Source of the DNA: Terriglobia bacterium | GTDB taxonomy: Bacteria; Acidobacteriota; Terriglobia; Versatilivoradales; Versatilivoraceae | Length of the DNA: 64,000 nt | Assembly: GCA_963663845.2 (NCBI GenBank) | Contig: OY760650.2 | Span: forward strand, 3,149,509-3,213,508 | Direction of reading: 5' to 3' | Shown: positions 15,731 through 53,359 of the stretch, piece after piece | Layout: every line of letters begins with the position of its first letter | Position numbering within the stretch: position 1 is the first letter of the stretch | Notes under the pieces: generated by a model | What the model saw: the letters and a program-made list of their open reading frames with translations, nothing else | Told to the model about the DNA's origin: nothing | Database searches by the model: none | Made by a program: the position numbers and the translations under genes

Positions 15731-15891
15731 GTGGGCTTCCTCCCGTGACATCGCCGCAGCAAAGGGGGTCCATCGGTATTCGTGTCTATTCGTGTCCATT
15801 CGTGGTTCGTCTTTATTGACGATCGGGTGTTTCACCCTCGCATGATCCGCACCGTCGTGAGGGGCGGGGGCGCTGTTTACCTGGAGAATCC

Positions 15892-17492: not shown

Positions 17493-18928
17493 CCGTCCAG
17501 CCTCTTTCTCAACAACTCGTTCACCAGGCGGGGATTGGCCTGCCCCTGGGTCGCCTTCATGACTTGACCCACGAAGAAGCCGAAGGTGGCCTTCTTGCCA
17601 CCCAGGTACTGGGCCAGGATTGCGGGATTGGCGGCCAGGACTTCTTCAATCACGGTGGTGACGGCATCGGGATCGGTGATCTGCTTCAGACCCTTTTCCC
17701 GGATCACCTGCCTGGCCGGCTTCTTCTCCCGAAACATGGCCTCGAAGATCTCCTTGGCCATCTTGCCCGAAACCTCTTTGCTGTCGATGCATCCGATCAA
17801 TTCGGCCAAGCGGCTCGGGCCGATGGGAGAAGACTCGATGTCGAGATTGAATTCCTTGAGGTCGCGCAACAGGTCTCCCATGATCCAGTTGGAAGCGGCC
17901 TTGGGATTGCGGGAGCGGGCCGCGGTTTCCTCGAAGAAATCGGCCAGGGCCCGGGTGGTGGTCAATACACCGGCGTCGTATGCGGGAATGGCGTACTCGG
18001 CCACGAACCGCTGCTTTTTTTCTTCGGGCAGCTCCGGCATGTCTGCCCGTATATCCCGCTGCCAATCGGCGTCCACCGCCAGAGGCGGCAAGTCGGGCTC
18101 GGGGAAATAGCGGTAGTCGTGAGCCTCTTCCTTGCTGCGCATGGGGAAGGTGCGCTGCTCGGTGGTGCTCCACAGGCGGGTTTCCTGGGTGACGGCGCCT
18201 CCCTGCTGCAAGAGGCGGGTCTGGCGGGCGATCTCATAGTCGAGCGCCTTCTGCAGGAAGCGGAAGCTGTTCAGGTTCTTCAGCTCGGTCTTGGTTCCCA
18301 GAGTGGGTGAGCCGACCGGGCGAATCGACACGTTGGCGTCGCAGCGGAGACTGCCTTCCTCCATGTTGCCGTCGCAGACTTGCAGGTATTCGAGAATGAC
18401 CTTCAGGCGGGTCAGGTAGTCGTGGGCCTGGGCCGGAGAGAAGATCTCGGGTTCGCTGACGATTTCGATCAGCGGGGTGCCGCTGCGGTTCAAGTCGATA
18501 TAGCTGAAGCGATCGGAGTCGGCGAAGCCGTCATGAATGGATTTGCCGGCATCCTCCTCCAGGTGGACCCGCTTGATCCCCACTCTCTGGGAATGGCCGT
18601 TCTCTTCGAGGTCGAGGTGTCCGTATTCCGCCAGGGGCTTGTCGAATTGGGAAATCTGGTAGCCCTTGGGGAGATCGGGATAGAAGTAATTCTTGCGCGC
18701 AAAAATCGAAAGGGAATTGATGCGGCAGTGGAACGCCAGGGCTGCCTTGACGGCCATGACCACGGCCCGGCGATTCAGCACCGGCAGGGCTCCGGGAAGA
18801 CCCAGGCAGACCGGACAGGTGTTGGTATTGGGGGGGGCTCCGAACCGGGTCGGGCAGGAGCAGAAGATCTTGGTTCGGGTCAGAAGCTGGGCGTGAACCT
18901 CGAGGCCAATGACGGCTTCATAGGTCAT
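17489..18928 (-). CDS. gatB: Asp-tRNA(Asn)/Glu-tRNA(Gln) amidotransferase subunit B
   Basis: 479 aa. '[21 protein letters not shown]', '[14 protein letters not shown]', '[10 protein letters not shown]'. Stop overlaps the next gene's start (ATGA). Confidence 0.95.
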
Positions 18929-33997: not shown

Positions 33998-34483
33998 TTG
34001 GGTCGGGCTGCCATCCGTGCGGGGGACCCGGTGCGCTCCACCTGGTTTGAAAAGGGAAAACGTTGGCTTGCCGGATGGCGCTTCGCCCGGTCCCGGGACC
34101 CGGGCCGGCCCAACACCTCCGAAACCGGCATGAAAGGAGAATTGGTCGCCTATGCCTACCTGAAGCGGCGAGGGTATCGGATTGTCGCCCACCGCTACCG
34201 CAGCTGCTCGGGGGAGATCGATCTCATTGGTTGGGACGGTGACATCCTGGCCTTCATCGAGGTGAAATATCGCCGGAATCGTCTCTACGGAGGTCCCGAG
34301 GAAGCGGTGGACCTTGCCAAGCAGCGGCAGATCTGCGGGGCAGCCGCCGACTATCGCCGCGGACTTCGCCGCCGGGCGGCTGCCTGGCGCTTCGACATCG
34401 TGGGCATTCAAGGGAGCTGGGCGGACCCGGAAGTCTTCCTCATCAAGGACGCCTTCAGGGAGCCGGGGAGGGTCGGTTGGTAG
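33998..34483 (+). CDS. yraN: YraN-family (UPF0102) endonuclease-like protein
   Basis: 'GELVAYAYLKRRGYRIVAHRYRSCSGEIDLIGWDGDILAFIEVKYRR'. Start uncertain (ATG 34130 is an alternative). Confidence 0.8.
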   Translation: MGRAAIRAGDPVRSTWFEKGKRWLAGWRFARSRDPGRPNTSETGMKGELVAYAYLKRRGYRIVAHRYRSCSGEIDLIGWDGDILAFIEVKYRRNRLYGGPEEAVDLAKQRQICGAAADYRRGLRRRAAAWRFDIVGIQGSWADPEVFLIKDAFREPGRVGW

Positions 34484-34486
34484 CCC

Positions 34487-34515
34487 CCGTTCCCCGCAGG
34501 CGCGGGGATGAACCG
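34487..34515 (+). repeat. orphan type I-E CRISPR repeat (28/29 identical to the array consensus)
   Basis: CCGTTCCCCGCAGGCGCGGGGATGAACCG, 4 nt after the yraN stop. No second repeat within 61 nt. Confidence 0.9.
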
Positions 34516-34621
34516 GCGACGCTCAAGCAACAGAGGCTTTCGATCAACCCATTGCATGCGGCCGCCGGCCTCTTCTCTCAGGGGCGAGCCCCCCTGGGAT
34601 TCTCGCGTTTCCCGCAGGGTC

Positions 34622-34650
34622 TTGACTTCAGAAGCAAACGGCGGCATAAA
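34622..34650 (+). promoter_or_regulatory. candidate promoter of DUF29 gene 1 (conserved with 53294-53322)
   Basis: TTGACT-17 nt-CATAAA. The same hexamers and spacing occur upstream of the second DUF29 gene. Confidence 0.45.
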
Positions 34651-34689
34651 CATGGCAACCCACCGCTTCACAAAGTCTGGAGGAAGACC

Positions 34690-35307
34690 ATGGCGACCGT
34701 TGCCGGAATTCCCGACACTCAGCAAGCTCGAGAGCAAAAGGGCCTCTACGATCGGGACTACTACACCTGGGCCCGGCAGCAGGCGGACGCCTTGAGGCGT
34801 CGCGATTTCGACGCTGTTGATTGGGAGAAGGTTACGGAGGAGATTGAAGCCTTGGTCAGGGGAGAAGAAAGCAGCCTCAGAAGCCAGTACACCCGGATCA
34901 TCGAGCATATGCTGAAGCTTCAATACCGCCAGGCTACGGAAATCGATCCGGTGGCGGGCTGGGAAAATTCCGTGGACAATGCCCGTACAGAGATCGATGA
35001 ACTATTGGAAGAAAGTCCTGGATTGAAGGACAAGCGCGATCCATTGTTTCAGGAGGCTTGGCCCCGCGCTAGAAGAAGAGCCATCAAGGCCCACGTGAAC
35101 CGTGCAACGGCAACGATCCGGAATGACTCGTTGCGCCACCGCGAACGCAAGCGGCTGACCCGTGAATGGAACCGCGCACTGCCTCGGGAAAACCCCTATA
35201 CCCGCCAGCAAGCTGAAGATTCAGACTGGCTTCCTCAGCGGCTACGCTTGACCAACCGTCCTCAGAGCCGACAGCAGCCCACCTCCAACATCGACAGGAC
35301 TCATTGA
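34690..35307 (+). CDS. DUF29-family protein, paralog 1
   Basis: 205 aa from ATG 34690 (GGAGG ribosome-binding site). 'YDRDYYTWARQQADALRRRDFDAVDWEKVTEEIEALVRGEESSLRSQYTRIIEHMLKLQY' is the DUF29 signature. Confidence 0.8.
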   Translation: MATVAGIPDTQQAREQKGLYDRDYYTWARQQADALRRRDFDAVDWEKVTEEIEALVRGEESSLRSQYTRIIEHMLKLQYRQATEIDPVAGWENSVDNARTEIDELLEESPGLKDKRDPLFQEAWPRARRRAIKAHVNRATATIRNDSLRHRERKRLTREWNRALPRENPYTRQQAEDSDWLPQRLRLTNRPQSRQQPTSNIDRTH

Positions 35308-35325: not shown

Positions 35326-35859
35326 CTACCCATAAGACTCGCCGGATTCACTGGACACCGGCGCTTGCCACCCCGAGGCCTGGGCCGCAAGCACGATGCG
35401 GGCGCACGCTTCCGCATCCGACCCGGGATCATGGTGTCGCAACAGGATGCGGAGCCGCCGGCAGACACTGGGCAAACCTGTCGGGTAGATGCTCCACTGG
35501 GAGCGCGCAAGCTCCACCGTGCATGTGAACGGCAGCGCCGGCACGCGAATTCCGTACATGGCGCAACAGGCTCGGAGCACCCTGCTGTCAAAACGCGCGT
35601 TGTGGGCTGCGATGAACTCCACCGTATCGAACCAGGGGAGCAGTGTCGGCCAGAGATTGCCAAAGGTGGGCGCGTTGCGCACATCTTGCCAATGGAGGCC
35701 ATGAATATGAGAGAACTCGAACCGCGATGTCGGCGGCCGGATCAGGAATGAACGCGTAGCCTCAACTTTCCCGTTGCTCCCCTTTGCGAGGCCCACCGCG
35801 CAGGCACTGACCCTCTGAGCATTGGCAGTCTCGAAATCGATAGCGACGAAAGAATTCAT
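35326..35859 (-). CDS. DEDDh 3'-5' exonuclease (DnaQ/epsilon-like), stand-alone
   Basis: 177 aa. Exo I 'FVAIDFETAN', Exo II 'FIAAHNARFDSRVL', Exo III 'HHDPGSDAEACARI'. Confidence 0.8.
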   Translation of the reverse strand: MNSFVAIDFETANAQRVSACAVGLAKGSNGKVEATRSFLIRPPTSRFEFSHIHGLHWQDVRNAPTFGNLWPTLLPWFDTVEFIAAHNARFDSRVLRACCAMYGIRVPALPFTCTVELARSQWSIYPTGLPSVCRRLRILLRHHDPGSDAEACARIVLAAQASGWQAPVSSESGESYG

Positions 35860-35958
35860 CGCTCAAGACGGTATCATATGGCTTTCCGCATGGTCCAAGT
35901 CCAGGGCGGTCAGCAACGGTCACTTCAATCATCGGTTCATGAGGGCTGCTCCGAAAAA

Positions 35959-38475
35959 ATGACACCAGAACAAATCGGCGCGTGGCCAGGCAAATTGATC
36001 GACGGATGCACCCATCCCGCCCTTTGGCACATGCTCGACGTGGGCGCGGTGGCGGCCTGCCTGACCGACCGCAGGCCACTGATCGGGACCCGAAAAGCCG
36101 ACCGGGCGGCGTCTTTTCTTGTCGCCTTGCACGATCTCGGGAAGTTCAGCACTTCTTTTCGCGCCATGTTGCTTGGCCTGCCTTACACGGGCCTCAGGCA
36201 CTGGCAGCACAGCTATCGGCTGCTGTGCGATCATGACGGTCTCCTCTCCGACAGGCTGGGAGCGACAAAGGGCGTCCGGCGAATACTGTATGCCGCCGTC
36301 GCCGGGCATCATGGAGGCCCGCCGGAGCACCTGGACTATCGAAAGTCCGGGGATCAGGCCAAGCAGATCGGAGCCGAGGCCTCCCGAATTGCCGGCGAGG
36401 CCATCGAGGCTGTCGCGTCCCGGTTTCCCGGAGCCTCCCTGGAGGGAATGACGGAACCCGAAGCCCGGCGATTGTCGTGGGCATTGTCCGGTCTGACCGT
36501 TCAAGCGGACTGGATCGGCTCCAATTCGGAGTGGTTCGGTCCCCAGGGTCCCGAAACTCCAATTGTCATCTATTGGAAAAATGCCCTTGCCAGGGCGGAA
36601 GCCGCGATCGCCAAGGCCGGTTTGCATTCTGCCCGCCCGTCACCTGAGGGAACCGAAGTGGTTCTGCCTGCGTCCGCCGAGCTTCGTCCGATGCAGGCGG
36701 CCGCAGCGAAGATCGAATTGCCGGATGGACCTGTGCTCGCACTGATCGAAGATGCGACAGGCTCCGGCAAGACCGAGGCAGCGCTCATCCTTGCGTCTCG
36801 CATGATGGCGGCAGGCAAGGGGGATGGTTTCTTTTTCGCCCTCCCGACCATGGCGACGTCGAACGCCATGCTGGGGCGCCTGGAAGCTATCGCGCCGCGG
36901 CTATTCGATGGCCGGCCCTCTCTGGCGCTGACCCATGGAAGAGCCGGGATGCATGAACGGTTCCGCGAGATCCTGGGGCGCGACGGGTCCGACCCGGGCG
37001 GGGGACCGAGTTGCGGTTCGTGGCTGGCTAACGACCGCCGCCGGATTCTTCTGGCCGACATCGGAGTGGGGACTATCGACCAGGCGTTGATGGCGGTGCT
37101 GCCGACCCGTTTCAACACGCTACGCCTGCGGGCATTGTCAGGACACATTCTCATCGTCGATGAAGCCCACGAATTCGACCCCTACATGGAGGCCCAACTG
37201 CAGCGCTTGCTGCAGTTCCACGCCATGTTGGGCGGCTCCGTGATCGTCATGACGGCAACCTTGCCGTTGGGTATGCGGGCCGGCTATGCCAAGGCCTTTC
37301 AGCAGGGTCTCGGTCTCCGCAGATCTTGCGAGGTCGAGGGTCAGGCTTATCCAATGCTGAACGTCATCGGCCGAAGCATCGACAGCGTGGAACCCGATGC
37401 CGTTCCGGCCACCTGCCGCGACCTCGCCGTGCGGCGGCTGGAAGATGAAGACGCTGCCGTGCGGCTATTGCAAGCCGGCAGCCGAAAAGGGATGGCCTGC
37501 GTATGGATACGCAATTCCGTCAATGGCGCCATTGCTTCGGCCATGGCCCTGCGCGAAGCGGGGCTCCAGGTCGATGTCTTGCATGCACGGTTTACGGTGG
37601 CCGACCGGCTGAAACAAGAAGGCGCCGTTCAGAGGTGTTTCGGGCGGGATGGCTTCGGCAGGGCGGGAAGGGTGTTGGTGGCGACCCAGGTGGTCGAGGC
37701 TTCGCTGGATCTGGATTTCGACCTGATGGTCACCGATCTGGCCCCGATCGGGTCGCTGGTCCAGCGGGCTGGGCGTCTGTGGCGGCACATGGACCTGCGT
37801 CCGGCGTCGAAGCGTCCGTCGGCGGCGCCCGTTTTGCACGTTCTGTCGCCGGACCCGGATCGGGTGGACGGCGCGGACTGGATGAAGCGAGTCCTTGGGT
37901 CGGGAGCCCTGGTCTATCCTCAGGATGTGCAGTGGCGCACCGCCAGGGCGCTGTTCGATCAGGGGGTGATCCGCGCACCGGGCGGTTTGCGCGATTTGAT
38001 CGAGACGGTGCACGGAGATGAACTCCCCGAGGTGCCAGATGTGCTGCAGGGGTACGAGTTCGAAACGATCGGCCGGAAGATGACCGAGGCCCAGCAGGCC
38101 TTCAACCAGGTGCTCGACGCGGAGGACTCCTACGACCAACCCCAGATGCAGCGCGTCTTTGACGACGACCGGTTCCCGACGCGCCTGGGATTGCCGCAGG
38201 TGACGTTGCGGCTGGCTCGTGAAGAGAACGGGAAGCTGGTGCCGTGGTCGGGGGAAGACCTGTTCGGCTGGAGACTGTCCGAAGTACTGGTTTCGGCTGT
38301 GCGTTACCGGAACCTGGAAGGCGTGGACCAGGAGCGCCCGGAAATCAGAGTTGTGCTTGAGGACTGGCCGGATTGGATGCGGAAGCGGGGGGGCGTGGCT
38401 CCGGTCGAGGAGAGCGGAAAGATTTGCGACGGGTTGCAGTACAATAGCGATCTGGGAATTGTTTTCACGGAATGA
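35959..38475 (+). CDS. cas3: CRISPR-associated helicase/nuclease Cas3 (type I-E)
   Basis: HD domain 'HPALWHMLDVGAVA...LHDLGKFS', helicase motif I 'DATGSGKTEAAL', motif II 'VDEAHEF'. The track ORF starts at 35878; ATG 35959 fits the usual N-terminus. Confidence 0.93.
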   Translation: MTPEQIGAWPGKLIDGCTHPALWHMLDVGAVAACLTDRRPLIGTRKADRAASFLVALHDLGKFSTSFRAMLLGLPYTGLRHWQHSYRLLCDHDGLLSDRLGATKGVRRILYAAVAGHHGGPPEHLDYRKSGDQAKQIGAEASRIAGEAIEAVASRFPGASLEGMTEPEARRLSWALSGLTVQADWIGSNSEWFGPQGPETPIVIYWKNALARAEAAIAKAGLHSARPSPEGTEVVLPASAELRPMQAAAAKIELPDGPVLALIEDATGSGKTEAALILASRMMAAGKGDGFFFALPTMATSNAMLGRLEAIAPRLFDGRPSLALTHGRAGMHERFREILGRDGSDPGGGPSCGSWLANDRRRILLADIGVGTIDQALMAVLPTRFNTLRLRALSGHILIVDEAHEFDPYMEAQLQRLLQFHAMLGGSVIVMTATLPLGMRAGYAKAFQQGLGLRRSCEVEGQAYPMLNVIGRSIDSVEPDAVPATCRDLAVRRLEDEDAAVRLLQAGSRKGMACVWIRNSVNGAIASAMALREAGLQVDVLHARFTVADRLKQEGAVQRCFGRDGFGRAGRVLVATQVVEASLDLDFDLMVTDLAPIGSLVQRAGRLWRHMDLRPASKRPSAAPVLHVLSPDPDRVDGADWMKRVLGSGALVYPQDVQWRTARALFDQGVIRAPGGLRDLIETVHGDELPEVPDVLQGYEFETIGRKMTEAQQAFNQVLDAEDSYDQPQMQRVFDDDRFPTRLGLPQVTLRLAREENGKLVPWSGEDLFGWRLSEVLVSAVRYRNLEGVDQERPEIRVVLEDWPDWMRKRGGVAPVEESGKICDGLQYNSDLGIVFTE

Positions 38476-38490
38476 CGTGCGAAGCCTGAC

Positions 38491-39975
38491 GTGGCAGCCA
38501 TGCTGAACCTTATCTCCGACCCCTGGATTCCAGTCCTTCGCCGTTCCGGATGCGACACCATCCGTCCAGACCAGATCGCCGAACCCGATGTCCTTCGTCC
38601 CGACTGGCCTCGCCCCGATCTCAACCTCGCCTGCTATGAGCTGCTCATCGGTCTGGTATACCTTGCACATCCGCCCAACGGCAGCGACGACCGTGCCAAC
38701 CCTCCGGACGCCGCCTCGCTCCGGGCGGCCATGAAACCCCTGGCGCCGGCCTTCAACCTGTTGGGCAATGGCCCGCGCTTCCTGCAGGACCTGGAGCCGC
38801 TGGAAGGTGAGGGGAATCCTCCGGATATGCTGTTCATCGACAGTGCGGGTGAGAGTACGGCCAGGAAAAACGCCGACCTGATGGTGCGCCGAGGGCGCTA
38901 TCCGGCGCTACCGTTGCCGCTGGCGGCCATGGCGCTCTACACGCTGCAGGCCTTCGCGCCGGCCGGCGGCGCGGGGAATCGCACCTCCATGCGCGGCGGA
39001 GGTCCGATGGTGACCCTCGTGAAGCCAGCCGAAGAAGGACTATGGCCGCTGGTTTGGGCGAACGTGCCGCAAGGCCCGTCCTTGGAGCCGCGCGACCTTG
39101 AAGCATTGCCATGGATGAGATTTACCGAAACCTCCAAGCCTGTCGGTAAGAAGCCCCGGGTCACAGTGCCCGCCAGCGACAGCCAATCAAGGATCGACCC
39201 CGAGGTGTTTTTTGGCCAGCCCCGCAGATTGTGCTTGGTGGCCCGGGATGGCGCGGTGACACAAGTCATTCAGGAACCGTGGGGCACGAACTACCAGCAC
39301 TGGCGTCATCCGCTGACGCCCTACTACAGAAAGGACGACGAGTTCTTGCCGCGTCATCCCAAGCCGGGAAGTTTCGGCTATCGAAACTGGCGAGGAGTGA
39401 TCCTTCAGAGTGACAGCGGTCTGCGGCCGCGGACGCTGGAGCAGTATCTGCGCGATATTGAATGGGCGCACTGCAGCCTGATCGTGGCGGGCTGGGCGAT
39501 GAAGAACATGAATCCGCTCGATTTCCTCTGGTCGGAACAGCCCGTGTTCACCCTGTCCAAGGACGACGAAAGTCGCGCCGAGGCGTCGGTGGAAGCATCC
39601 GAACAGGCCGGCTTCGCGGTGGCAGTCTGCGTAGAAGACGGCGTCGGGGATGGCGATGTAAAATCGGGCGCCGGCCAACGAGCGCGGGAGGCGTTTTTTG
39701 CCGAGACGCAAGGTCCGTTCGAAGAGATGCTCGCATCAATGTCGGCAGGTGAACCCTTCGTACCGGGGGAATGGGTCAAGACGCTCCGACGGGCGGCGCT
39801 GCCGATCTTTGACCGGGAGGTCTTGCCGGGGCTGGCGGACCTTGCAGACACCCGCCGAGACGATGCCATCAGGGCGCGATCGAAACTGAAGGCTGCCTTC
39901 GAAGGGCGGCCACCTTTCGGAAAGAAGATCTTCGATCCGCTTGGGTTGGAGAGGCCGTCCAGGCCGTCTGGATAG
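38491..39975 (+). CDS. cas8e: Cascade large subunit Cse1/Cas8e (CasA)
   Basis: 494 aa. 'MLNLISDPWIPVLR...RPDLNLACYELLIGLVYL'. Position directly after cas3. Confidence 0.88.
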   Translation: MAAMLNLISDPWIPVLRRSGCDTIRPDQIAEPDVLRPDWPRPDLNLACYELLIGLVYLAHPPNGSDDRANPPDAASLRAAMKPLAPAFNLLGNGPRFLQDLEPLEGEGNPPDMLFIDSAGESTARKNADLMVRRGRYPALPLPLAAMALYTLQAFAPAGGAGNRTSMRGGGPMVTLVKPAEEGLWPLVWANVPQGPSLEPRDLEALPWMRFTETSKPVGKKPRVTVPASDSQSRIDPEVFFGQPRRLCLVARDGAVTQVIQEPWGTNYQHWRHPLTPYYRKDDEFLPRHPKPGSFGYRNWRGVILQSDSGLRPRTLEQYLRDIEWAHCSLIVAGWAMKNMNPLDFLWSEQPVFTLSKDDESRAEASVEASEQAGFAVAVCVEDGVGDGDVKSGAGQRAREAFFAETQGPFEEMLASMSAGEPFVPGEWVKTLRRAALPIFDREVLPGLADLADTRRDDAIRARSKLKAAFEGRPPFGKKIFDPLGLERPSRPSG

Positions 39976-39988
39976 GCAGGGAGGACGC

Positions 39989-42270
<2,282 letters not shown>

Positions 42271-42274
<4 letters not shown>

Positions 42275-42968
42275 CACTCTATCTCTCACGGCTGACGCTG
42301 AACCGGGAGGCTCCGGCCGCGGCGCTGTTGCCCCTGCTGAACCCACGGGAGCCGGGAATGGCGGCGGACGCTCATCACCGGCTGATCTGGTCGGTCTTTG
42401 CCGACAGCGCGGACCGCCGGCGGGATTTCCTCTGGCGGCATGACGGGCAGGGCCGCTTCTACACGCTTTCAAGACGGCAGCCGCAATCGAGCAGCCTCTT
42501 CAACCCGCCCGAGAGCAAGGCCTTCAATCCGGTTCTTCGTACGGGCGATCGGCTGCAATTCACCTTGCGGGCCAATGCCACCAAGGACCGCGCAGCCGTC
42601 AGCCGGATGGAGAAGTCCGCCAGGCGCGGCAAGAGCCGGCGGGTGGATGTGGTGATGGACCTCCTGCGGTCCGCGCCCGAGAACGGAAAGCGTGGAGCCA
42701 TCCGGGACCGCACGGCACAAGCCGCGGCCGAGGCCTGGATGGCCCGGCAGGGAACCGCCCGGGGATTCGAACCGAGAATGACCTTGGTGGAAGGCTATTC
42801 CACTATAGAGTTGGGCCGCAGGCGTCGTGAGGGAGCCACGTTCGGCATTCTCGACCTGACGGGGATCCTTGCCGTGACCGACCCGGAGGCGTTCCTGGCT
42901 GCGCTGGCGACGGGATTCGGCCGAGCCAAGGCCTGGGGCTGCGGGCTCATGTTGATCCGTCGGGCAAG

Positions 42969-42972
<4 letters not shown>
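42271..42972 (+). CDS. cas6: Cas6e (CasE) pre-crRNA endoribonuclease
   Basis: 'MTLYLSRLTLNRE...', C-terminal 'GFGRAKAWGCGLMLI'. Position fits the I-E gene order. Confidence 0.9.
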
Positions 42973-44175
<1,203 letters not shown>

Positions 44176-44271
44176 TAGTGGGGGTTACAATTACCTTCGC
44201 GGGCATGGGTAATCTTGGTAGCAATCAACGCAACCTACAACTCTCTGCACATCAATAACATGGAGATTAGT
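44176..44271 (+). promoter_or_regulatory. leader of CRISPR array 1
   Basis: 96-nt comparatively AT-rich segment between the cas2 stop and the first repeat. No promoter hexamers confidently identified. Confidence 0.6.
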
Positions 44272-47200
44272 CTGTTCCCCGCAGGCGCGGGGATGAACCG
44301 CCGGGCTTTCTGGGGAACCCGGCCTGCGTGGACTGTTCCCCGCAGGCGCGGGGATGAACCGGGCTACGGTCCCTGAAGATGTGAAACTCTACACTGTTCC
44401 CCGCAGGCGCGGGGATGAACCGGTTCGGTGCGGCAGGGTACGGTGCGGCGGGGCCTGTTCCCCGCAGGCGCGGGGATGAACCGCTTTCCGCGTTGCTCCG
44501 CGATACCGTCGGCGACTGTTCCCCGCAGGCGCGGGGATGAACCGTACCGCAGGCCGTTTCTCTTTCCGTATCAGCTCTGTTCCCCGCAGGCGCGGGGATG
44601 AACCGATCCGGAACCGGGTCGGCGGGGTCGGCGAGCTCTGTTCCCCGCAGGCGCGGGGATGAACCGATGCTGATCGACGCCACAAAGGACGATGACGACT
44701 GTTCCCCGCAGGCGCGGGGATGAACCGGAGGCGAGGAAGAGAGCAGCGCCCGGTTCTTCCTGTTCCCCGCAGGCGCGGGGATGAACCGTCGACGAAGCCC
44801 TGGCCACCACGGTCGAGGGCCTGTTCCCCGCAGGCGCGGGGATGAACCGTACCGGGCAACGATCCCGCCGGTCGATCAGCTCTGTTCCCCGCAGGCGCGG
44901 GGATGAACCGGACCAGGTGGGCCGCGACGTCTCGCGTCTCGACTGTTCCCCGCAGGCGCGGGGATGAACCGTCTGGATACAGTGGTTGTGATGCCGCGCG
45001 ACACTGTTCCCCGCAGGCGCGGGGATGAACCGTCGGCGACCGCTCAGGGGCTGTATTTTGGAGCCTGTTCCCCGCAGGCGCGGGGATGAACCGGCGGCCT
45101 CCCCGGTGTCGACCTAAGAGGGGTTCTGTTCCCCGCAGGCGCGGGGATGAACCGCCTATGCCCTCACGGACTGGGTGCGCTATTCGCTGTTCCCCGCAGG
45201 CGCGGGGATGAACCGGTACGGAGATGCTCGCGCTCCTGCCGGCGAAGCTGTTCCCCGCAGGCGCGGGGATGAACCGGCGCTGGAGGGGCTGAAATACCAG
45301 CTGACGAACTGTTCCCCGCAGGCGCGGGGATGAACCTCTGGTCGACCGGCTGCCGCGCTTTCGCTGCGGCTGTTCCCCGCAGGCGCGGGGATGAACCGGC
45401 TTCCTCGTGTCCAGCAAGTGCCACTCGGTGCTGTTCCCCGCAGGCGCGGGGATGAACCGAGGCTGGCGGCATGACCGAGCTCGGATGTGGCCTGTTCCCC
45501 GCAGGCGCGGGGATGAACCGGAGGCAGAACATGCAAACTGCTGAAAACGAAACTGTTCCCCGCAGGCGCGGGGATGAACCGCCGTCCGGCACTTCATTCT
45601 TGAAGGACTTGCGCTGTTCCCCGCAGGCGCGGGGATGAACCGGTCCATTGATGAATGTCCGGCTAACCCACATCCTGTTCCCCGCAGGCGCGGGGATGAA
45701 CCTAGGTGACGGACTGGTCCGCGAGGGCCTGCGGTCTGTTCCCCGCAGGCGCGGGGATGAACCGCCCAGCTTCAGGTTTTCGAGCTTCGTGAATTCCTGT
45801 TCCCCGCAGGCGCGGGGATGAACCGTGTTCCATCCCGAGGAACTGACCTTTTGGAACCTGTTCCCCGCAGGCGCGGGGATGAACCGTCCGCGACCATCCG
45901 TTCGGGGTCCCACACGCCCTGTTCCCCGCAGGCGCGGGGATGAACCGGATTGGCGAGCGTCGCGCCATTCGGGTTCGGTCTGTTCCCCGCAGGCGCGGGG
46001 ATGAACCGTCGGTGACCGTGTAGGTGACGGTGACTTGGCCCTGTTCCCCGCAGGCGCGGGGATGAACCGGTGCTGGCTCAAGACTGATTTTTGTTTGGTA
46101 GCTGTTCCCCGCAGGCGCGGGGATGAACCGGCCCTGGACAGAGCCCTTATCTGGATGACATTCTGTTCCCCGCAGGCGCGGGGATGAACCGATTTTGAAC
46201 TCTTAGCCTCTGGAAACTCTGTCCTGTTCCCCGCAGGCGCGGGGATGAACCGACTTTTCCGCATCACTGCCTCGATGACATCGACTGTTCCCCGCAGGCG
46301 CGGGGATGAACCGAGATTCAGCGCATGGCTCAGGAGATCGATCTCCTGTTCCCCGCAGGCGCGGGGATGAACCGGGTTGTTCTGTCTGGTGAAGCAGGCT
46401 GCAGCGCTGTTCCCCGCAGGCGCGGGGATGAACCGGTGAACCCAAATGGCGGCCCAATAGCCGAACACTGTTCCCCGCAGGCGCGGGGATGAACCGAACA
46501 ACCCCTTCGCCCGCCCCACCCCCGGGGCCTGTTCCCCGCAGGCGCGGGGATGAACCGTCACGAAAGGGGCTGGGGCGCTTGAAGCCGCCCTGTTCCCCGC
46601 AGGCGCGGGGATGAACCGCCCTTGTGATAGGGGCAAATCAGCAGCCCCTTCTGTTCCCCGCAGGCGCGGGGATGAACCGTCCCTCGAGGTAGACGAGGCG
46701 GTGAGTTTCGCCTGTTCCCCGCAGGCGCGGGGATGAACCGCACTTGATCAGGAAAGTGCTCCGGTCGCCGGGCTGTTCCCCGCAGGCGCGGGGATGAACC
46801 GTTTGATCTCCAGGGGCAGCCGCAGGACCCGAGCTGTTCCCCGCAGGCGCGGGGATGAACCGTCTCCACGGCTGACCGGCGGGCGGGGGCGTGCCTGTTC
46901 CCCGCAGGCGCGGGGATGAACCGGCTTCGACCGATCAATCCCAGCAACGCCGGGGCTGTTCCCCGCAGGCGCGGGGATGAACCGCCGGCCGAGGCGATCT
47001 ATACCGACCGGATGCGCTGTTCCCCGCAGGCGCGGGGATGAACCGGTGGCCACCCACCCCCGCTTTCTCGACCGCGGCTGTTCCCCGCAGGCGCGGGGAT
47101 GAACCGCTGAGAATTGGTTGAAGATTCAGCTCCACGGACTGTTCCCCGCAGGCGCGGGGATGAACCGTTGGGAGCCGCGCTCAGCTTCCGGAGGATATCC

Positions 47201-48387
47201 TGTTCCCCGCAGGCGCGGGGATGAACCGCTGGAAATCGACCAAATGCCGAAGGAGGCGATCTGTTCCCCGCAGGCGCGGGGATGAACCGCGTCAACCGTG
47301 GGGCGGAATCCGCTTCCCGGTCTGTTCCCCGCAGGCGCGGGGATGAACCGGTCAAGACCGTTCCCATCGACCTGATTACCCCCTGTTCCCCGCAGGCGCG
47401 GGGATGAACCGTAGGCGGGTAGGCGGGTAGGCGGGTAGGCGGGCTGTTCCCCGCAGGCGCGGGGATGAACCGGCAGATATCAGCGCGTCGAGCCCGTGGT
47501 CCACCTGTTCCCCGCAGGCGCGGGGATGAACCGCGGTGCAACGTTGGCAGTCTGGCGGCGTTGAACTGTTCCCCGCAGGCGCGGGGATGAACCGGCTGTC
47601 GGAGCGCATCTCGCAGATCGAGAGCACTGTTCCCCGCAGGCGCGGGGATGAACCGCTGGTCAACGCGCTGCTGAGCGACGGAGAGGACTGTTCCCCGCAG
47701 GCGCGGGGATGAACCGGGCTGTTTCCCTTCATGCCGCAAACCGATAATCTGTTCCCCGCAGGCGCGGGGATGAACCGTAGGGGGCCGTCCCGGCCGCCGC
47801 CGCTAAGTCCTGTTCCCCGCAGGCGCGGGGATGAACCGAGCGTGTGGGATTGGGCGGGGTGGCTCCAGGGCTGTTCCCCGCAGGCGCGGGGATGAACCGA
47901 CTGTGCATTCTAGTCACGGGGCGGGTGTGGTCTGTTCCCCGCAGGCGCGGGGATGAACCGTTGGTCTATACCCTGCGGACGGACGCCTCGAACTGTTCCC
48001 CGCAGGCGCGGGGATGAACCGTCGTTTGATAGGGCTGGGATTCCTGGGTTTGACTGTTCCCCGCAGGCGCGGGGATGAACCGACGGCGATCCCCTACGAG
48101 GAATTCGCCGAGGTCTGTTCCCCGCAGGCGCGGGGATGAACCGCGCGGCTGATGCGCGACACCGCTACCCGCGAGCTGTTCCCCGCAGGCGCGGGGATGA
48201 ACCGCGGGCCGGGCGGCGGCGGGGTAGCGGGCCGTACTGTTCCCCGCAGGCGCGGGGATGAACCGGAGCCCTCCGCGACTTCGGCCAGCAGTGGCTCCTG
48301 TTCCCCGCAGGCGCGGGGATGAACCGCCCTTGACGTTTCAGGAACGGCTCGGTAGTGACTGTTCCCCGCAGGCGCGGGGATGAACCG
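44272..48387 (+). CRISPR. type I-E CRISPR array 1: 68 repeats of 29 bp, 67 spacers of 32 bp
   Basis: Repeat CTGTTCCCCGCAGGCGCGGGGATGAACCG. The 61-bp period was checked at several points (44272, 45309, 46590, 47383, 48359). Orientation matches the canonical I-E repeat, which ends in AACCG. Confidence 0.98.
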
Positions 48388-48593
48388 GGAGCTGTTTCTG
48401 CTCAGCTTCCACCGGGTGCGGAAGAGAGACGTGGCGGCCACCCGGAGATCGGGCAAGACGCTGCGGAAATAGCGACAGGGCCGCCCGAAGACGGCCCTGC
48501 TTGCCGGGATTTACAGCGTTCGCCCAGAGCGCTCCCGGCCGGCGCTGAGAGCAATATAGCACGAAAATGGCGAAAGAGGCGTGTGGCCAACAC

Positions 48594-50688
48594 CCAGGGG
48601 GATTTCACGCTGGAGTTCGGAGTGGGATGGTCAGAGGGGATTGCCAGAGGGATTGGAGGACGGACCAGTCGCAGGAGAGGATGTGGAGGGGAGGTGCGCC
48701 CGGAAGGGATGGCGATCGGAGTCAGCGACTGTCGCCTGCGGGCGATGGAGATGGACGGGTGGGGAGGCGTCTGGAGGTGCCGGCGCCGAGGAAGCCATCC
48801 GGACAGGGAGCGGGGGCGATCAGGTCGGCGAGAGAATGGCGTCGAGGGCGTCTTGGCGGCGCATCATGAAGTGCAGGTTCGCTTCGGGCACGTAGTGGAA
48901 GCCGCGGTGAAAGACGATGGCGAGTGCGATGTTGTTGAGGGTGGCGTTGTTGGCGGGGGCGTGGCGTGCGCGCAGGCGGCTGGCGTCCTCGCCGAGGCTG
49001 GTGTCGCGGCGATAGTGGTTGGCGTTCTCCACCGCCCAGTGGCCGCGGTTCCAGGTCAGGAGTTGCTCCGGGCTGGCCCGCTCGGCGCTCACCGAGGTGA
49101 TGGCGTAGACGGTCTCGGTGGTGGTCTCGCCGGTACTCAGGTCGGTGCGCTCGCGGATGACGCGCATCGCTTGGCGCGCCTTCTCGAAGTTCAAGAAGCG
49201 GCCGGGCAGGGTGAAGGCGTCGAGGCGGCGCCTCTCAATGCGCCCGTGGCCCTTCTCGGGCCCCGCGCCGTGATGGCGCACCTCGGGCGCGTTCCAGTCC
49301 AGCGTGGCGAGCGCCTCGGAAGTGTCCGGGCAATTGCCCTTGACGGTGAGCAGATACTCGGCACGGTGGATGTCCACGATCACACGTTCGGTGTCACGGG
49401 TCGTGTGCAGAGCATCCAGGGTGATGACGCACCCGCGCACATTGACGTCTTCCAGCAGCGCCCTTGTGGCCGCGATCTCCCCGCCTTCGTCACGGCAGCA
49501 GCGGCTGGCGAGTGGCCGCCCATCGTGGGTGACCAGGGTGACCGTTTCGAAGTACACCCCCTTGCCGGCGTGGCGGTTGGCGCCCCGAATGCGCTTGCCG
49601 TCGGCGGCGATCGCAGGCGAGGGGCCTCGCACCACACCACGCGGCACCGCCCATCGGCGCAACACCTCCTGCAAGGCGTCGGGATCGGTATCGGCAAGCA
49701 CCCGGCACAGCGTCGAGTCCGACGGGGCGACCCAACGCCCGGCCTTGGGGTCGTACCATGCCCCCAGCGCGCGCAACTCCTCCTGGCTCAAGCGCTGGGC
49801 GAAACGCTCCATCGCCGACGGCCCCGAGACCCCGGCCATCCGCGCCAGCGCGCACACCGAAAGGACCGTATCGAGCTTGTGCTTCATCCCCTGGCCGCGA
49901 CGACAATCCGGCATCTCCCCGAACAGTTCGCGCAGCGAGCGCAACTCCTCGCGCGTATACCTCAACGGCGTCGCCCGGCACGTCCACTCCTTGCGGTCCA
50001 CCGGGTTCGCCAAGCGCTCCCGTGCATCACGGCGCAACGGGCGCACCAACATCTCCTTCCGCACCTCGTGCGGGTCGGTATAGGCGCCGTTGTGGCGCGC
50101 AAATCCCTTCGTGCGCCCCACCCGCACCCAGTTGGAGGCGTCATAGGCGCCGCCGTGAAACCGCGAGGGGTCCACGAACGTCTCCGCAAGCTCCAGCGGA
50201 TGCCCGTAGGCCGTCTCCCAGTCCGCGCTCAAACGCCTCAGACTGCGCCCCAACACCCGCGACGCCAAGTTCTTGATTCCCCCCGCCTCCGGCAGAATCA
50301 GAAACCGCGTGTTGTTCCCAATCAGATGCAACCGCCGGAACTGCACCGACCGGTGCCAGCCCAGCCACCGGTCCCGCGGCGCGCACTTGAACGCCCCCGA
50401 CTGCCAACCCACCAGCGCCAGCCAGTGCCCCCGCCACACCGCGACGTGCCGCAGCCCCCGGCCTGCAAATTGCCGGAACCCCAGGTAGTGGTGCCCGTCC
50501 ATCAGTGCGTCCCAGCGCCGCCGCTCGTCCGGCCGTGCCAGCCTGACTTCCACTTCCCCTATCACCACCTGCGACCTGTCGAACCCATCCGCCATGCCCC
50601 CTTTATATCCGAATCTCTCCCAAAAAGCCAGCCCCCTGTACAACTATCCTAATGTCACCCTCTTGCCGCTAGCGTGAAATAGCCCTGG
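48594..50688 (-). mobile_element. ISAs1-family-like insertion sequence, element 1 (2095 bp)
   Basis: Terminal inverted repeats CCAGGGGGATTTCACGCT (48594-) and AGCGTGAAATAGCCCTGG (-50688). 8-bp direct duplication GCCAACAC at 48586-48593 and 50689-50696. Confidence 0.8.
48820..50595 (-). CDS. fusion transposase: N-terminal DUF4338-like domain plus ISAs1-type DDE domain
   Basis: N-terminus 'HHYLGF...LRHVAV...WLALVGWQSGAFKCAPRDRWLGW...RLHLIGNNTRFLILP...NLASRVL...ETFVDPSRF.G..Y.ASNW'. C-terminus 'KGHGRIERR', 'GHWAVENANHYRRDTSLGEDASRLR'. The track ORF extends to 50643. Confidence 0.8.
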   Translation of the reverse strand: MADGFDRSQVVIGEVEVRLARPDERRRWDALMDGHHYLGFRQFAGRGLRHVAVWRGHWLALVGWQSGAFKCAPRDRWLGWHRSVQFRRLHLIGNNTRFLILPEAGGIKNLASRVLGRSLRRLSADWETAYGHPLELAETFVDPSRFHGGAYDASNWVRVGRTKGFARHNGAYTDPHEVRKEMLVRPLRRDARERLANPVDRKEWTCRATPLRYTREELRSLRELFGEMPDCRRGQGMKHKLDTVLSVCALARMAGVSGPSAMERFAQRLSQEELRALGAWYDPKAGRWVAPSDSTLCRVLADTDPDALQEVLRRWAVPRGVVRGPSPAIAADGKRIRGANRHAGKGVYFETVTLVTHDGRPLASRCCRDEGGEIAATRALLEDVNVRGCVITLDALHTTRDTERVIVDIHRAEYLLTVKGNCPDTSEALATLDWNAPEVRHHGAGPEKGHGRIERRRLDAFTLPGRFLNFEKARQAMRVIRERTDLSTGETTTETVYAITSVSAERASPEQLLTWNRGHWAVENANHYRRDTSLGEDASRLRARHAPANNATLNNIALAIVFHRGFHYVPEANLHFMMRRQDALDAILSPT

Positions 50689-50702
50689 GCCAACACCAGA
50701 AA

Positions 50703-52813
50703 CCAGGGCGAATTTTTGTTCAAGACTGGCAGGCTTGGAGGGAAGAGGGGGGAGGGCTGAATCTGTGGTGCTGGTGGGTAGAGAAGGGGATGGCAGAGGG
50801 GTTGGAGGCGATGGTGGGGAGGCGAAGGGATGGATTGGAGGATGGTAGGCAGGGGTGGGCGGCCCGTAGAGAGGGTTGGGGGCTGGCTGGTGGGTTGAGG
50901 GGGGGCTTCAGGCTCTCAGAGGGTTGAGCACGGCCTTGAGGGCGGCCTGGGGTTGACCGGCATAGAAGCGATGGGCCTGGGGCAGGTAGGAGAAGCGACC
51001 CTGACAGCGGACGATGGAGATGGCGGCATTGGTCATGGCGGCGAGGTTGCGGGGCAGGTGGCCGACATGAGCGCGGCAGCGGTCTTCGTCCCAGGAGAGG
51101 TCGCGGACATGATGGAGTCGATTCTCGATTTCCCAGTGACCTCGGACCAGAGCCATCAAGCGTTGGGAGTCGGCCTCTGCGGGGGGCAACGAGGTGAGGC
51201 CGTAAACGACTTCGGTGCTTCTGGCGCCGGTCTTCAGGTGGGTGCGCTCCCGCTGGATGCGGAAGGCTTGGCGGCGATAGGGCAGGCGAGCATAGTCGTT
51301 CCACTGCTTACCCGTCAGGTCGAGGCGACGGCAGCGGCGGGTTTCGATGCGCCCGTGAGCCTTGTCGAGAGTTTCCCGCTGAGAGGCGACGCAGGCGGGC
51401 GCCTCCCAGTCGATGGCCTTGAGGTCCTCCAGCAGGGTGGGCTGGTTGTGCTTCACCGCCGTGGCCACCCAATGGGCCTGACCCTGTTCGACCACCAGGC
51501 GCAGAGTGTCCCCCTGCACATGCAGCGCATCCAGGCTGACGGTCCGACCCGCCAAGCGCAGTTGACTGACCAGGGTGCGCACCGCCGGGATCTCGTTGCT
51601 CTTGTCCCGGACCGCTTCCTGGCCCAGCACCAGGCCCGACCCATGTTCGAGGGCGGCCACCAGCAGCGTGCGGCCCCGGGGGTTGTGGCGGGAGGCGCCG
51701 CGCACCTGCTTGCCGTCGACGGCGACCGGGGCTGGGTGGCGGCTCATCCTGCTGGCCCAGAGCCGCAAGGCCCGGTCGAGGGTGTCGGGAGGCAGCCGCG
51801 CCAGCACGTTGTGGAAGGTGGTGACGGTGGGGGCCGTATAGCGGTTCAGTTTCTTGCTGTAGTAGGCGCGCAAGGCGGCCAACTGCTTCTGAGTGAGACG
51901 GGAGGCAAACTCGGCGATGGCGGTCACGCCTCGGCAGCCGGCCAAGCGTGCCGCCACGGTTATCGTCAGCAGGGTGGCCAGCGGGTAGCGCTTGCCCCGA
52001 GGCCTGCGGAACTCCTCCACCGTGCGCAAGGTCTCGAACAGAGAGCGCAGGCTTCCCTCGCCCAAGGGCTTGGACTCCCCTTGGCTGCGCCAATCGGGGG
52101 AATCATCCAGTTGACTCAGTTGCTGACAGGCATCCGCTTGCAGAGGGTACACGAAGATCTCCTTGGGTTGACCGTGAAGGCACCAGCGCGCGCTGCCCCC
52201 GGGCTGGCGTCGATAGCCCCGCGTCCTGCCCAGCCTCAGCCAGTTGGAAGCCCGGTAGCAGATGCCCCCAAAGCGGCTGGGGTCGACGAAGGTCTCGGCC
52301 ACCAGCACCGGATGGCCGTGCAGCGCTCGCATATCCCTCGATACCCGCCGCAGGCTCAAGCCCAGCACCCGCGAGGCCAGATTCGGTCGATGGGGGCCGG
52401 GCAACACCACGAAGCGGGTGTTGTTGGCAATCAAATGCAGCCGCCGGAACTGCTGCTGCGGAACCCATCCAATCCACCGGTCCCGCGCCTTCAGCTTGAA
52501 GGCTCCTGCCTGCCAGCCCACCAGCGCCACCCACTCCCCGTCGAATTCCGCCACGTGACGCAACCCGCACCCCACCAGACCCTGAAACGGCAAGTAGTGA
52601 TGCTGCCGAACCAGTCGGTCCCAGCGGCGGCGCTCCTCCAGCCCCCGGGTCGGCCGCACCCGCACCGCTCGCAACGGCCGCTCTTTCAGCACAGCAACTC
52701 GGGAGGTGTCCATCGCCATCCCTCCCATCATCCCAGATCAGTTCCCGATTGTCCAGACTCAATCCTACCCCCATTGCTCTTAATCAAATGCCCGTCAACA
52801 AAAAATGGCCCTG
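50703..52813 (-). mobile_element. ISAs1-family-like insertion sequence, element 2 (about 2.1 kb), a diverged relative of element 1
   Basis: Imperfect terminal repeats CCAGGGCGAATTTTTGTT (50703-) and CAACAAAAATGGCCCTG (-52812). 8-9-bp duplication (C)ACCAGAAA at 50694-50702 and 52813-52821. The G-rich region 3' of the transposase gene resembles that of element 1. Confidence 0.75.
50908..52731 (-). CDS. fusion transposase: DUF4338-like domain plus ISAs1-type DDE domain (paralog, roughly 55-60% identical by eye)
   Basis: 'HHYLPF...LRHVAEF...WVALVGWQAGAFKLKARDRWIGW...RLHLIANNTRFVVLP...NLASRVL...ETFVDPSRF', 'DKSNEIPAVRTL', 'KAHGRIETRR', 'GHWEIENRLHHVRDLSWDEDRCR'. Confidence 0.8.
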   Translation of the reverse strand: MMGGMAMDTSRVAVLKERPLRAVRVRPTRGLEERRRWDRLVRQHHYLPFQGLVGCGLRHVAEFDGEWVALVGWQAGAFKLKARDRWIGWVPQQQFRRLHLIANNTRFVVLPGPHRPNLASRVLGLSLRRVSRDMRALHGHPVLVAETFVDPSRFGGICYRASNWLRLGRTRGYRRQPGGSARWCLHGQPKEIFVYPLQADACQQLSQLDDSPDWRSQGESKPLGEGSLRSLFETLRTVEEFRRPRGKRYPLATLLTITVAARLAGCRGVTAIAEFASRLTQKQLAALRAYYSKKLNRYTAPTVTTFHNVLARLPPDTLDRALRLWASRMSRHPAPVAVDGKQVRGASRHNPRGRTLLVAALEHGSGLVLGQEAVRDKSNEIPAVRTLVSQLRLAGRTVSLDALHVQGDTLRLVVEQGQAHWVATAVKHNQPTLLEDLKAIDWEAPACVASQRETLDKAHGRIETRRCRRLDLTGKQWNDYARLPYRRQAFRIQRERTHLKTGARSTEVVYGLTSLPPAEADSQRLMALVRGHWEIENRLHHVRDLSWDEDRCRAHVGHLPRNLAAMTNAAISIVRCQGRFSYLPQAHRFYAGQPQAALKAVLNPLRA

Positions 52814-52822
52814 CACCAGAAA

Positions 52823-53218
52823 ACTGTTCCCCGCAGGCGCGGGGATGAACCGCTGTGAGTGGTCCTCTTGAGCGTGTGATTCAGCTGTTCCCCGCAGGCG
52901 CGGGGATGAACCGCTGTTCCACTTCCCGATATCCGCCCCGGTGAACTGTTCCCCGCAGGCGCGGGGATGAACCGAACGGACCGGAATGGCGCCCGCCAGG
53001 CGTTTCCTGTTCCCCGCAGGCGCGGGGATGAACCGTCCTTGGTGGGTGTGCGCTTTGCCATGGCGCTCTGTTCCCCGCAGGCGCGGGGATGAACCGTGCT
53101 ACAGCGGGCGGCGGAGTCGTGGAACCTGCTGTTCCCCGCAGGCGCGGGGATGAACCGACCTTGGCAGCCGCCAACTACCAGGAGATGCACTGTTCCCCGC
53201 AGGCGCGGGGATGAACCG
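52823..53218 (+). CRISPR. type I-E CRISPR array 2: 7 repeats, 6 spacers (32, 32, 32, 33, 32, 32 nt)
   Basis: Same 29-bp repeat and orientation as array 1. Repeats start at 52823, 52884, 52945, 53006, 53068, 53129 and 53190. Confidence 0.97.
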
Positions 53219-53230
53219 ACTGATTTTCTT

Positions 53231-53263
53231 GAGGCGGCGCCTTCGGCCGTCGCCTCTTTTTTT
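53231..53263 (+). terminator. intrinsic terminator 12 nt after the last repeat of array 2
   Basis: GAGGCGGCGCC-TTCG-GCCGTCGCCTC hairpin (one G-U pair and one mismatch) followed by TTTTTTT. Confidence 0.7.
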
Positions 53264-53293
53264 CTCGCGCTTGGCTCGCTTCTTTCCCGGCGC

Positions 53294-53322
53294 TTGACTT
53301 CCCCGCCCAACCGGTGCATAAA
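53294..53322 (+). promoter_or_regulatory. candidate promoter of DUF29 gene 2
   Basis: TTGACT-17 nt-CATAAA, the same architecture as 34622-34650. Confidence 0.45.
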
Positions 53323-53359
53323 CGCACCTATACCCTTTCGGCCGCTGTGGAGGTGACCG

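Follow-up and report, generated by a model that had tools for sequence, protein, structure and literature searches.

Standalone sequences that resemble the repeats of CRISPR arrays are present in 25–29% of the cas3-adjacent untranslated regions of type I-E, I-D, and I-F1 systems, and their occurrence in type I-E is sporadic (Shmakov et al., 2023, 10.1101/2023.03.03.530964). Some of them encode repressors that resemble CRISPR RNAs (crRNAs) and act on cas8 or cargo promoters (10.1101/2023.03.03.530964). In CRISPR-supervised systems a pseudo-spacer pairs with a site 37–46 bp upstream of the transcription start of a cargo gene, which is flanked by a protospacer-adjacent motif (PAM) (Shu et al., 2024, 10.1101/2024.12.27.630466). 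The insertion of insertion sequences (IS) and other mobile DNA into arrays and the recombination-driven exchange or loss of CRISPR-Cas modules have also been described, e.g., for E. coli (PMC3903273). Lastly, solitary repeat units of phages, the RNA anti-CRISPRs (Racrs), are encoded by viruses and plasmids (PMC10651486). There is a growing tendency to interpret standalone repeats close to cas3 as regulatory RNAs. Here, a 64-kb stretch of contig OY760650.2 (the window), from an organism placed in Bryobacterales/Terriglobia, was analyzed, which contains a complete type I-E locus on the plus strand and, upstream of cas3, a solitary repeat in front of a DUF29 gene. This orphan repeat is a well-documented case within the known class of sporadic standalone repeats, and it is probably a recent recombination scar that stems from an array-embedded DUF29 paralogue, not a new regulatory device.

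Like the cases of Shmakov et al., the orphan repeat is a single copy that lies at the cas3 border of a type I-E locus, outside of the array. However, the functional subset of these cases consists of mini-arrays with a spacer that partly matches the cas8 or cargo promoter next to a PAM, and they are conserved among close relatives, whereas neither a second repeat nor a target nor conservation was found here. The likeness to CreTA/CreR and to the CRISPR-supervised systems is that a solitary repeat unit at a cas operon has a non-cas gene with its own promoter as its neighbour, but no such pairing site was present, and DUF29 has no known toxic or defence activity. Insertions into arrays are similar in that kilobase-sized inserts split arrays and leave isolated repeats or mini-arrays behind, that cas genes are lost by recombination, and that the array of the window is itself split by two transposase-like genes. 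In contrast to these cases, one family, DUF29, recurs in the inserts of several genomes and with two repeat types, and the repeat-bearing junction is proposed to have been copied subsequently to the opposite side of the cas operon. Racrs are likewise single CRISPR repeats outside of an array, but the orphan repeat is embedded in conserved chromosomal synteny and not in a mobile element targeted by the CRISPR system. An integron-like cassette system would be marked by cassette ends that stay constant at the repeat boundary and by a recombinase close by; here, the junctions differ between genomes, and a partial gene survey identified no recombinase beside the cassettes.

The orphan repeat (CCGTTCCCCGCAGGCGCGGGGATGAACCG, 34487–34515, plus strand) is identical to the array consensus at 28 of 29 positions and has the orientation of the array, in agreement with the original prediction, and zero matches were expected by chance. 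The single mismatch is at position 2, outside of the CCCCGC/GCGGGG stem, leaving the hairpin stem intact, and the 8-nucleotide (nt) handle (AUGAACCG) starts at 34508. The repeat begins 3 nt past the stop codon of a UPF0102/YraN-like gene (33998–34483, plus strand; Pfam PF02021, E = 3e-24). It is followed by a tract of 32 spacer-like nt and about 70 further nt (34516–34621, plus strand), the promoter-like motif TTGACT-17-CATAAA (34622–34650, plus strand), a GGAGG sequence, and a DUF29 gene of 205 amino acids (DUF29-1, 34690–35307, plus strand; Pfam PF01724, E = 2e-31). Within 9.7 kb of the orphan repeat no other repeat was present, the 61-nt spacing of the array was not found, and an nhmmer search with a repeat profile revealed no degenerate copies nearby. 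The sequence GTTTCCCGCAGGG, directly 5′ of the −35 box, was considered as a decayed half-repeat and was rejected, because this sequence forms the 3′ arm of a conserved hairpin (CCTGTGG...CCACAGG) upstream of D1-type paralogues at non-CRISPR loci.

The same chromosomal site was compared in related genomes (coordinates refer to the 64-kb window unless a locus is named, and L-numbers are labels of the fetched relative loci). The gene order CysS-UPF0102-DUF29-DEDDh-cas3 is kept in seven contigs of three lineages, and the DUF29 proteins are 94% (L078), 92% (L082/L083), and 87% (L079–L081) identical to that of the window. In all seven syntenic loci the repeat between UPF0102 and DUF29 is absent. They carry instead a mutually homologous sequence of about 110 nt, to which the tract of the window has no significant similarity (z-scores of at most 1.3 against L078, L079, and L082). 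The flanking genes of L078 are 97–98% identical to those of the window, yet L078 has the same repeat-free version as L082 and L079. Therefore, the change must be recent and specific for the lineage of the window.

A homologue of the repeat-bearing junction is present at the end of a CRISPR array. L084 is a 172-kb TARA scaffold (scaffold_73 of ERZ28653960) with cas genes, repeat, and right flank as in the window. Behind the last of the 50 repeats of its array lies a homologue of window positions 34516–34689, which leads into a DUF29 gene; 64 nt past this gene there is one more perfect repeat. L085, an independent short assembly, has the same array-end junction. The repeat of the window together with about 105 following nt is about 87% identical to this junction. 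When the gene is included, the identity to L084 is 87.7% over 807 nt, and the z-score of the tract against L084 is 52. The 34.5-kb junction is common only to the L084/L085 array end. An alignment with the relatives revealed that the region is a mosaic: it is of the local type (L078/L082/L079) until the UPF0102 stop codon, between the repeat and the −35 box it matches the array end of L084, and beyond that the local type resumes. The switch to the local type is located in the −35 region, and the DUF29-1 coding sequence is 96–100% identical to that of L078 in sliding windows. Outside of the tract, the identities to L084 are 88.8% for the right flank, with the alginate-export gene and the genes past it, and about 83% for the alignment from the cas genes to the array. 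The divergence of the tract (about 87% identity) thus equals the overall divergence between the window and L084, and therefore the source was probably a resident paralogue of the own lineage and not a recent import. Of the 29 positions of the orphan repeat, 2 are different in L084, as are 5 of the following 32 nt, and a special conservation of the repeat relative to the neighbouring tract is not apparent in this comparison.

The following scenario is proposed for the origin of the orphan repeat. In this Bryobacterales/Terriglobia lineage DUF29 genes are present at both borders of the type I-E island, which is framed by UPF0102 and the alginate-export gene, and the array trailer is a mosaic of array fragments and kilobase-sized segments of the mobile-element type (DUF29, ribbon-helix-helix (RHH) genes, transposases, HicAB). 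A recent ancestor would have contained two D1-type DUF29 genes. The first would have been an ordinary, repeat-free copy upstream of cas3, and the second an array-end paralogue comprised of the last repeat, 32 spacer-like nt, about 70 nt, the promoter, and the gene, as still is the case in L084/L085. In one non-reciprocal transfer, about 133 nt upstream of the cas3-proximal DUF29 gene would have been swapped for the array-end version. As to the repair mechanism and the location of the donor, we infer that the likeliest form was a break repair primed in the shared promoter region, with leftward copying through the repeat. The left end would have been joined by microhomology at the UPF0102 stop codon, and the repeat would have hitch-hiked with the tract. 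The near-perfection of the repeat would then reflect the recency of the transfer and not selection. No terminator was predicted between UPF0102 and the orphan repeat, and the sequence makes it plausible that the repeat is co-transcribed, probably within the 3′-untranslated region of UPF0102, and that its intact hairpin could be cut by Cas6e. Without a partner repeat and a detectable target, no role in immunity or regulation would be expected. Nothing indicates selection on the orphan repeat. This case with a traceable source illustrates that recombination between paralogues at the flanks of a CRISPR-Cas island can also leave a near-perfect orphan repeat behind as a passenger, and therefore a near-perfect repeat in a suggestive position is not evidence of function.

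Several points weigh against the proposed transfer. A donor copy, expected to be a further D1-type DUF29 gene with a repeat and GCGACGCTCAAGC in front of it, is absent from the window, and the trailer now contains DUF29-2, a second DUF29 gene described below, so that the donor must have been lost or must reside elsewhere. The left joint is devoid of homology, which would add an end-joining step to what is taken as a single event, and the comparison with L084 covers its cas genes, its array, and its right flank. In addition, the locus L001 weakly resembles the 3′ end of the repeat and the next 30 nt or so (z = 4.5), and this likeness hints that the unit of repeat and DUF29 gene may have a greater age and may travel as a whole.

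The junction between a repeat and a DUF29 gene at 53.2 kb stems from a separate event. There, the last array repeat is followed by an upstream region (53219–53359, plus strand) and by DUF29-2 (53360–53965, plus strand, 201 amino acids; Pfam PF01724, E = 4e-29). The junction at 53218/53219, at which the repeat abuts ACTGATTTTC, occurs only in the window. The DUF29-2 terminator of L019 and L078 is preceded by the 3′ end of another gene and not by a repeat. In the window the last array repeat has taken the place of this gene end, precisely between ...AACCG and ACTGA. Orthologous DUF29-2 segments with 86–88% nucleotide identity are present in L019, L078, L175, and L002, where the gene is usually convergent with an RHH gene, and in four of four the segment is inverted relative to the repeats. 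The RHH gene is broken at a different codon in each genome. The joints are independent and not copies of one module. In the window a 3′ fragment of about 31 codons of the RHH antitoxin-like gene remains (53975–54068, minus strand), which is convergent with DUF29-2 and 87% identical to L002 12071–12173; the intact RHH gene of L002 belongs to PF20605 (Antitox_RHH, E = 3e-14). The RHH gene is truncated by a degenerate repeat (54069–54097, plus strand; 26/29, three mismatches), and both repeat and fragment had been overlooked in the original prediction. This degenerate repeat is probably the old terminal repeat of the array, which now marks the RHH break. The 32 nt in front of it (54037–54068) were considered as a spacer and rejected, since they are part of the truncated RHH gene, which is intact in L002.

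In the original prediction the repeat, the promoter, and the DUF29 gene had been regarded as a duplicated module that brackets the locus. It was verified that both genes belong to DUF29/PF01724 (109 and 102 bits against a gathering cut-off of 22.5, with profile positions 1–138 of 138 matched). The motif TTGACT-17-CATAAA is indeed present in front of both genes (at 53294–53322, plus strand, for DUF29-2), and GGAGG precedes each ATG. However, this motif fails a stricter sigma-70 scan and is thus a conserved motif and not a demonstrated promoter, and it also occurs at DUF29 paralogues at loci without CRISPR. A terminator scan verified a hairpin with a T run resembling an intrinsic terminator at 53231–53256, and it found no comparable terminator in the 34.5-kb copy. 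The identity of the two proteins had been put at about 45%; it amounts to 53% over 184 amino acids (BLASTP) or to 49% over the full alignment. The alleged homology of the regions between repeat and gene could not be upheld: the best local alignment upstream of the −35 box (GGCCGyCG.CCTCTT) was equalled or beaten by 7% of the shuffled sequences (p about 0.07), and blastn gave no match between 34516–34625 and 53219–53295. The parts of the presumed module differ in divergence, with a near-identical repeat, 53% identical proteins, and upstream regions without significant similarity, and its two junctions have different histories. DUF29-1 and DUF29-2 belong to different subfamilies, and orthologues of each with 86–96% nucleotide identity exist elsewhere. 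Taken together, the module does not hold, because the promoter goes with CRISPR-free paralogues, the junctions arose separately, and the syntenic relatives are devoid of the repeat. The apparent paradox of an old duplication beside an almost perfect repeat dissolves, because the repeat arrived recently.

Among the alternatives, the likeliest one states that DUF29, often accompanied by a convergent RHH gene, makes up a small cassette of mobile or selfish nature that lodges preferentially between repeats or is functionally linked to arrays, and that the orphan repeat is an integral cassette end. This is regarded as unlikely, in spite of several observations in its favour. DUF29 segments are flanked by repeats of the same orientation in the window (53190/54069), L084, L175 (three segments), L019, L002, and L078. 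L024, which has an unrelated 37-nt repeat, shows the layout of array, DUF29, and perfect solitary repeat, and in L001 a D1-type gene at a non-CRISPR site may be preceded by a decayed repeat. The proximity of DUF29 and repeats exceeded random placement, with a repeat within 500 nt of DUF29 in 3 of 77 genome loci, which had been found through DUF29 and thus are a biased sample. However, the junctions lie at varying RHH positions and in both orientations, and some repeats are truncated, all of which speaks against a site-specific mechanism. A nearby repeat is missing from most DUF29 loci, and none of three Cas2-anchored type I-E loci carries DUF29, while one of them has a solitary repeat that is parted from the array by IS elements. 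Moreover, the type I-E cases may share one ancestral island, so that there might have been as few as two independent events. A partial gene survey did not identify a recombinase beside the cassettes.

The earlier proposal that DUF29 is functionally tied to the array trailer stood only in part: in this clade the two are indeed associated, and there is one such case with a different repeat type, whereas the variable orientations and junctions, the three Cas2-anchored loci without DUF29, and the lack of any sign of selection on the orphan repeat speak against the tie. The pattern is most simply explained if the array trailers of this clade collect remnants of mobile elements together with pieces of arrays, with DUF29 as a frequent cargo. 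It is doubtful that DUF29 cassettes, with or without RHH, settle preferentially between repeats at the trailers of at least two unrelated CRISPR types, in which case the repeat in front of DUF29-1 would be the end of a cassette and would have moved together with the gene. Whole repeats flank the inserts, and thus repeats might serve as recombination or integration sites for cassettes, possibly through the adaptation machinery. Alternatively, the cassettes may be kept at trailers by an expression that is coupled to the array. Should the recurrent lodging of DUF29 genes behind the last repeat of an array and ahead of another intact one, which includes one case with an unrelated CRISPR type, hold against controls, this would be the first functional context for DUF29.

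Trailer mosaics, with and without DUF29, were found in L175, L019, L002, L024, and L178. In L175 the array is followed by a pair of DUF29 genes, a mini-array, a pair of unknown genes, another mini-array, and a third DUF29 gene, in this order. At positions 6850–11700 of this locus (ENA ERZ23495410, scaffold_515) three kilobase-sized segments are parted by mini-arrays of repeat, spacer, and truncated repeat; they contain an RHH fragment with two DUF29 genes, two genes without Pfam match, and an RHH fragment with one DUF29 gene, respectively. L002 has four DUF29 genes and five solitary repeats. In L024 (5828–11000; OZ243965.1, Bryobacterales) 52 repeats of a 37-nt family (ATCTCCCCCCGCTTCGGCGGGGGGAGCGGATTGAAAC) are followed by a 1.4-kb DUF29 segment and one perfect solitary repeat. 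The homology to DUF29 paralogues elsewhere begins 31 nt past the last array repeat, and this position suggests that the segment was inserted into a spacer. L178, a Cas2-anchored type I-E locus without DUF29, has a solitary variant repeat (18236–18261) 3.7 kb past the end of its array, surrounded by DDE transposase genes.

DUF29 is a multi-copy family, with six or more loci in some genomes and with tandem clusters, and it also occurs on plasmids and on a plasmid-like contig. The latter (L174, ENA ERZ25070786, ctg148484c, 40.6 kb, circular by name) encodes TrbC, ParA, RepB primase, and ArdC, is devoid of CRISPR repeats, and has three DUF29 genes that are interleaved with SNase and Endonuclease_NS nuclease genes. 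Far from CRISPR, a DUF29 paralogue of the L079 genome lies beside a PemK/MazF-type toxin gene (L086, 10001–11224), which, together with the RHH and HicAB neighbours, suggests that DUF29 is often located beside toxin-antitoxin genes. The earlier statement that DUF29 has no known function remains true. The confident AlphaFold model (predicted local distance difference test score of 87.6) is a helical bundle without a fold match in the PDB at E ≤ 0.001, and its only sequence relative in the PDB, 3FCN, is of unknown function. The single PHROG match likewise is of unknown function, and one paper mentions DUF29, in passing. DUF29 had no match in the PADLOC defence-system models or in a phage genome collection, a metagenome scan for close relatives found almost none (best identity 55%), and the viral relatives are distant (six loci, at most 43% identity). 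The DUF29 proteins of the window have no exact record in the assembly index.

A second alternative is that the orphan repeat is ancestral at its site, either as a remnant of an upstream array or as part of a cassette, and was lost in the relatives, which seems quite improbable. The tract between repeat and DUF29 is old and common to L084 at genome-level divergence, and there is a loose likeness between the window and the intergenic sequence of L079 (TCAAG, CGAT, GCGGCCGCC). However, losses would be needed in L078, L082/L083, and L079–L081, yet these share one homologous repeat-free sequence, and this sequence is not significantly similar to the tract of the window (see the z-scores above). In addition, the 3 nt between the UPF0102 stop codon and the repeat leave no space for a leader. 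The related idea in the original prediction that a second array upstream of cas3 had collapsed to one repeat was thus abandoned: there is no room for a leader, decayed repeats are missing, and the seven related syntenic loci are repeat-free.

It is less probable still that the repeat and the following 32 nt form a solitary unit encoding a crRNA-like RNA with which Cascade represses DUF29 or cas genes, as in CreTA/CreR and CRISPR-supervised genes. Like in the published cases (10.1101/2023.03.03.530964; 10.1101/2024.12.27.630466), a standalone repeat with intact hairpin is located beside a non-cas gene at the cas3 border, and DUF29-1 has its own putative promoter about 110 nt downstream of the repeat. 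However, a partial match with seed and PAM was found neither in the upstream region of DUF29 nor in those of DEDDh/cas3 or cse1. The best pseudo-spacer score was 11 of 15 seed positions with a non-canonical PAM, which is at the level of shuffled spacers: of 200 shuffled spacers, 179 had a best score of 10 or 11, and 81 reached at least 11. A strict seed search in 4 kb on either side of the orphan repeat gave no match. Likewise, no convincing match with seed and PAM was found for the 32 nt behind every solitary repeat in the window, L084, L175, L019, L002, and L078. A second repeat-like sequence downstream is missing, and the repeat is not kept in close relatives. Conservation is the criterion of the published surveys.

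In viral scans the spacer-like 32-mer had no match, and the repeat had two matches, neither of which was tied to DUF29. One viral contig with low GC content (L181, 4735–4760; IMGVR_UViG_3300029959_000411) carries a single exact type I-E repeat core and no array; going by the sequence, it could be a phage solitary repeat unit. The 175 spacers of the window, L084, L175, L079, L019, L078, and L085 gave only short matches at chance level against all fetched loci, including the DUF29-bearing plasmid-like contig, and none of these spacers was common to different genomes.

Finally, it is most improbable that the 18.7-kb block of cas genes and array is excisable by way of its direct repeats, one at 34487 and the others in the array, as had been proposed, or that the junction stems from a chimeric assembly. 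Spacers are known to be deleted by recombination between 29-bp direct repeats, so that excision is mechanically possible, and CRISPR-Cas loss variants exist in the relatives L078 and L019, but these join cas3 (codons of about 304–319) to the array at different points and not the orphan repeat to an array repeat. A chimera would need two false joins, since the 29-nt repeat is bordered by unique sequence on both sides. In L078 (10676–11739) and L019 (11275–12174) cse1 to cas2 were lost independently, and cas3 is truncated after the Walker A motif (at about codon 319 and 304, respectively) and fused to array remnants, which looks like a recurrent inactivation of the interference genes.

The remaining features of the locus are as follows. 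UPF0102 is the conserved left flank of a variable CRISPR-Cas/DUF29 island. Between DUF29-1 and cas3 a gene for a DEDDh (RNase T-like) exonuclease is located (35326–35859, minus strand; Pfam RNase_T; PADLOC DEDDh “CAS ... associated,” E = 1e-20), a CRISPR-associated accessory that had been overlooked previously. It is a standalone gene divergent from cas3, its position is kept in relatives, and it may function as an accessory for prespacer trimming. The type I-E operon (35878–44175, plus strand) encodes cas3, cse1, cse2, cas7, cas5, cas6e, cas1, and cas2, assigned from open reading frames (ORFs) and from the Pfam-annotated homologues in L079. It is followed by a 96-nt leader (44176–44271, plus strand) and by the proximal part of the array with 68 repeats and a 61-nt period (44272–48387, plus strand). 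The distal part, with seven perfect repeats (52824–53218, plus strand), abuts the DUF29-2 segment. It had been taken as a second array; it is the distal part of a single array, which is divided by a 4.4-kb insert (48388–52823, minus strand), and no leader resembling that of the proximal part is present before 52824. The insert, with intact repeats on either side, contains two transposase-like genes of 607 amino acids (48820–50643 and 50908–52731) with about 70–80% nucleotide identity and with DruA, DDE_Tnp_1_assoc, and DDE_Tnp_1 domains. Its element ends are only tentative (inverted repeat 48593–48611/50671–50689).

Between the degenerate repeat and the right flank (54156–55516) a short ORF similar to Phage_TAC_7 (phage tail-assembly chaperone) and, on the minus strand, a HicA/HicB-like toxin-antitoxin pair were found, material that is missing from L084 and L078. 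The conserved right flank, common to L084, L078, and L019, starts with an Alginate_exp gene (55623–57245, minus strand; Pfam and blastn synteny). No Rfam family matched anywhere in the window. Unrelated to the orphan repeat, the window contains two tandem repeats, one of a 117-nt unit (13284–13500, 1.9 copies, 92% matches) and one of a 407-nt unit (15105–15883, 1.9 copies, 91% matches).

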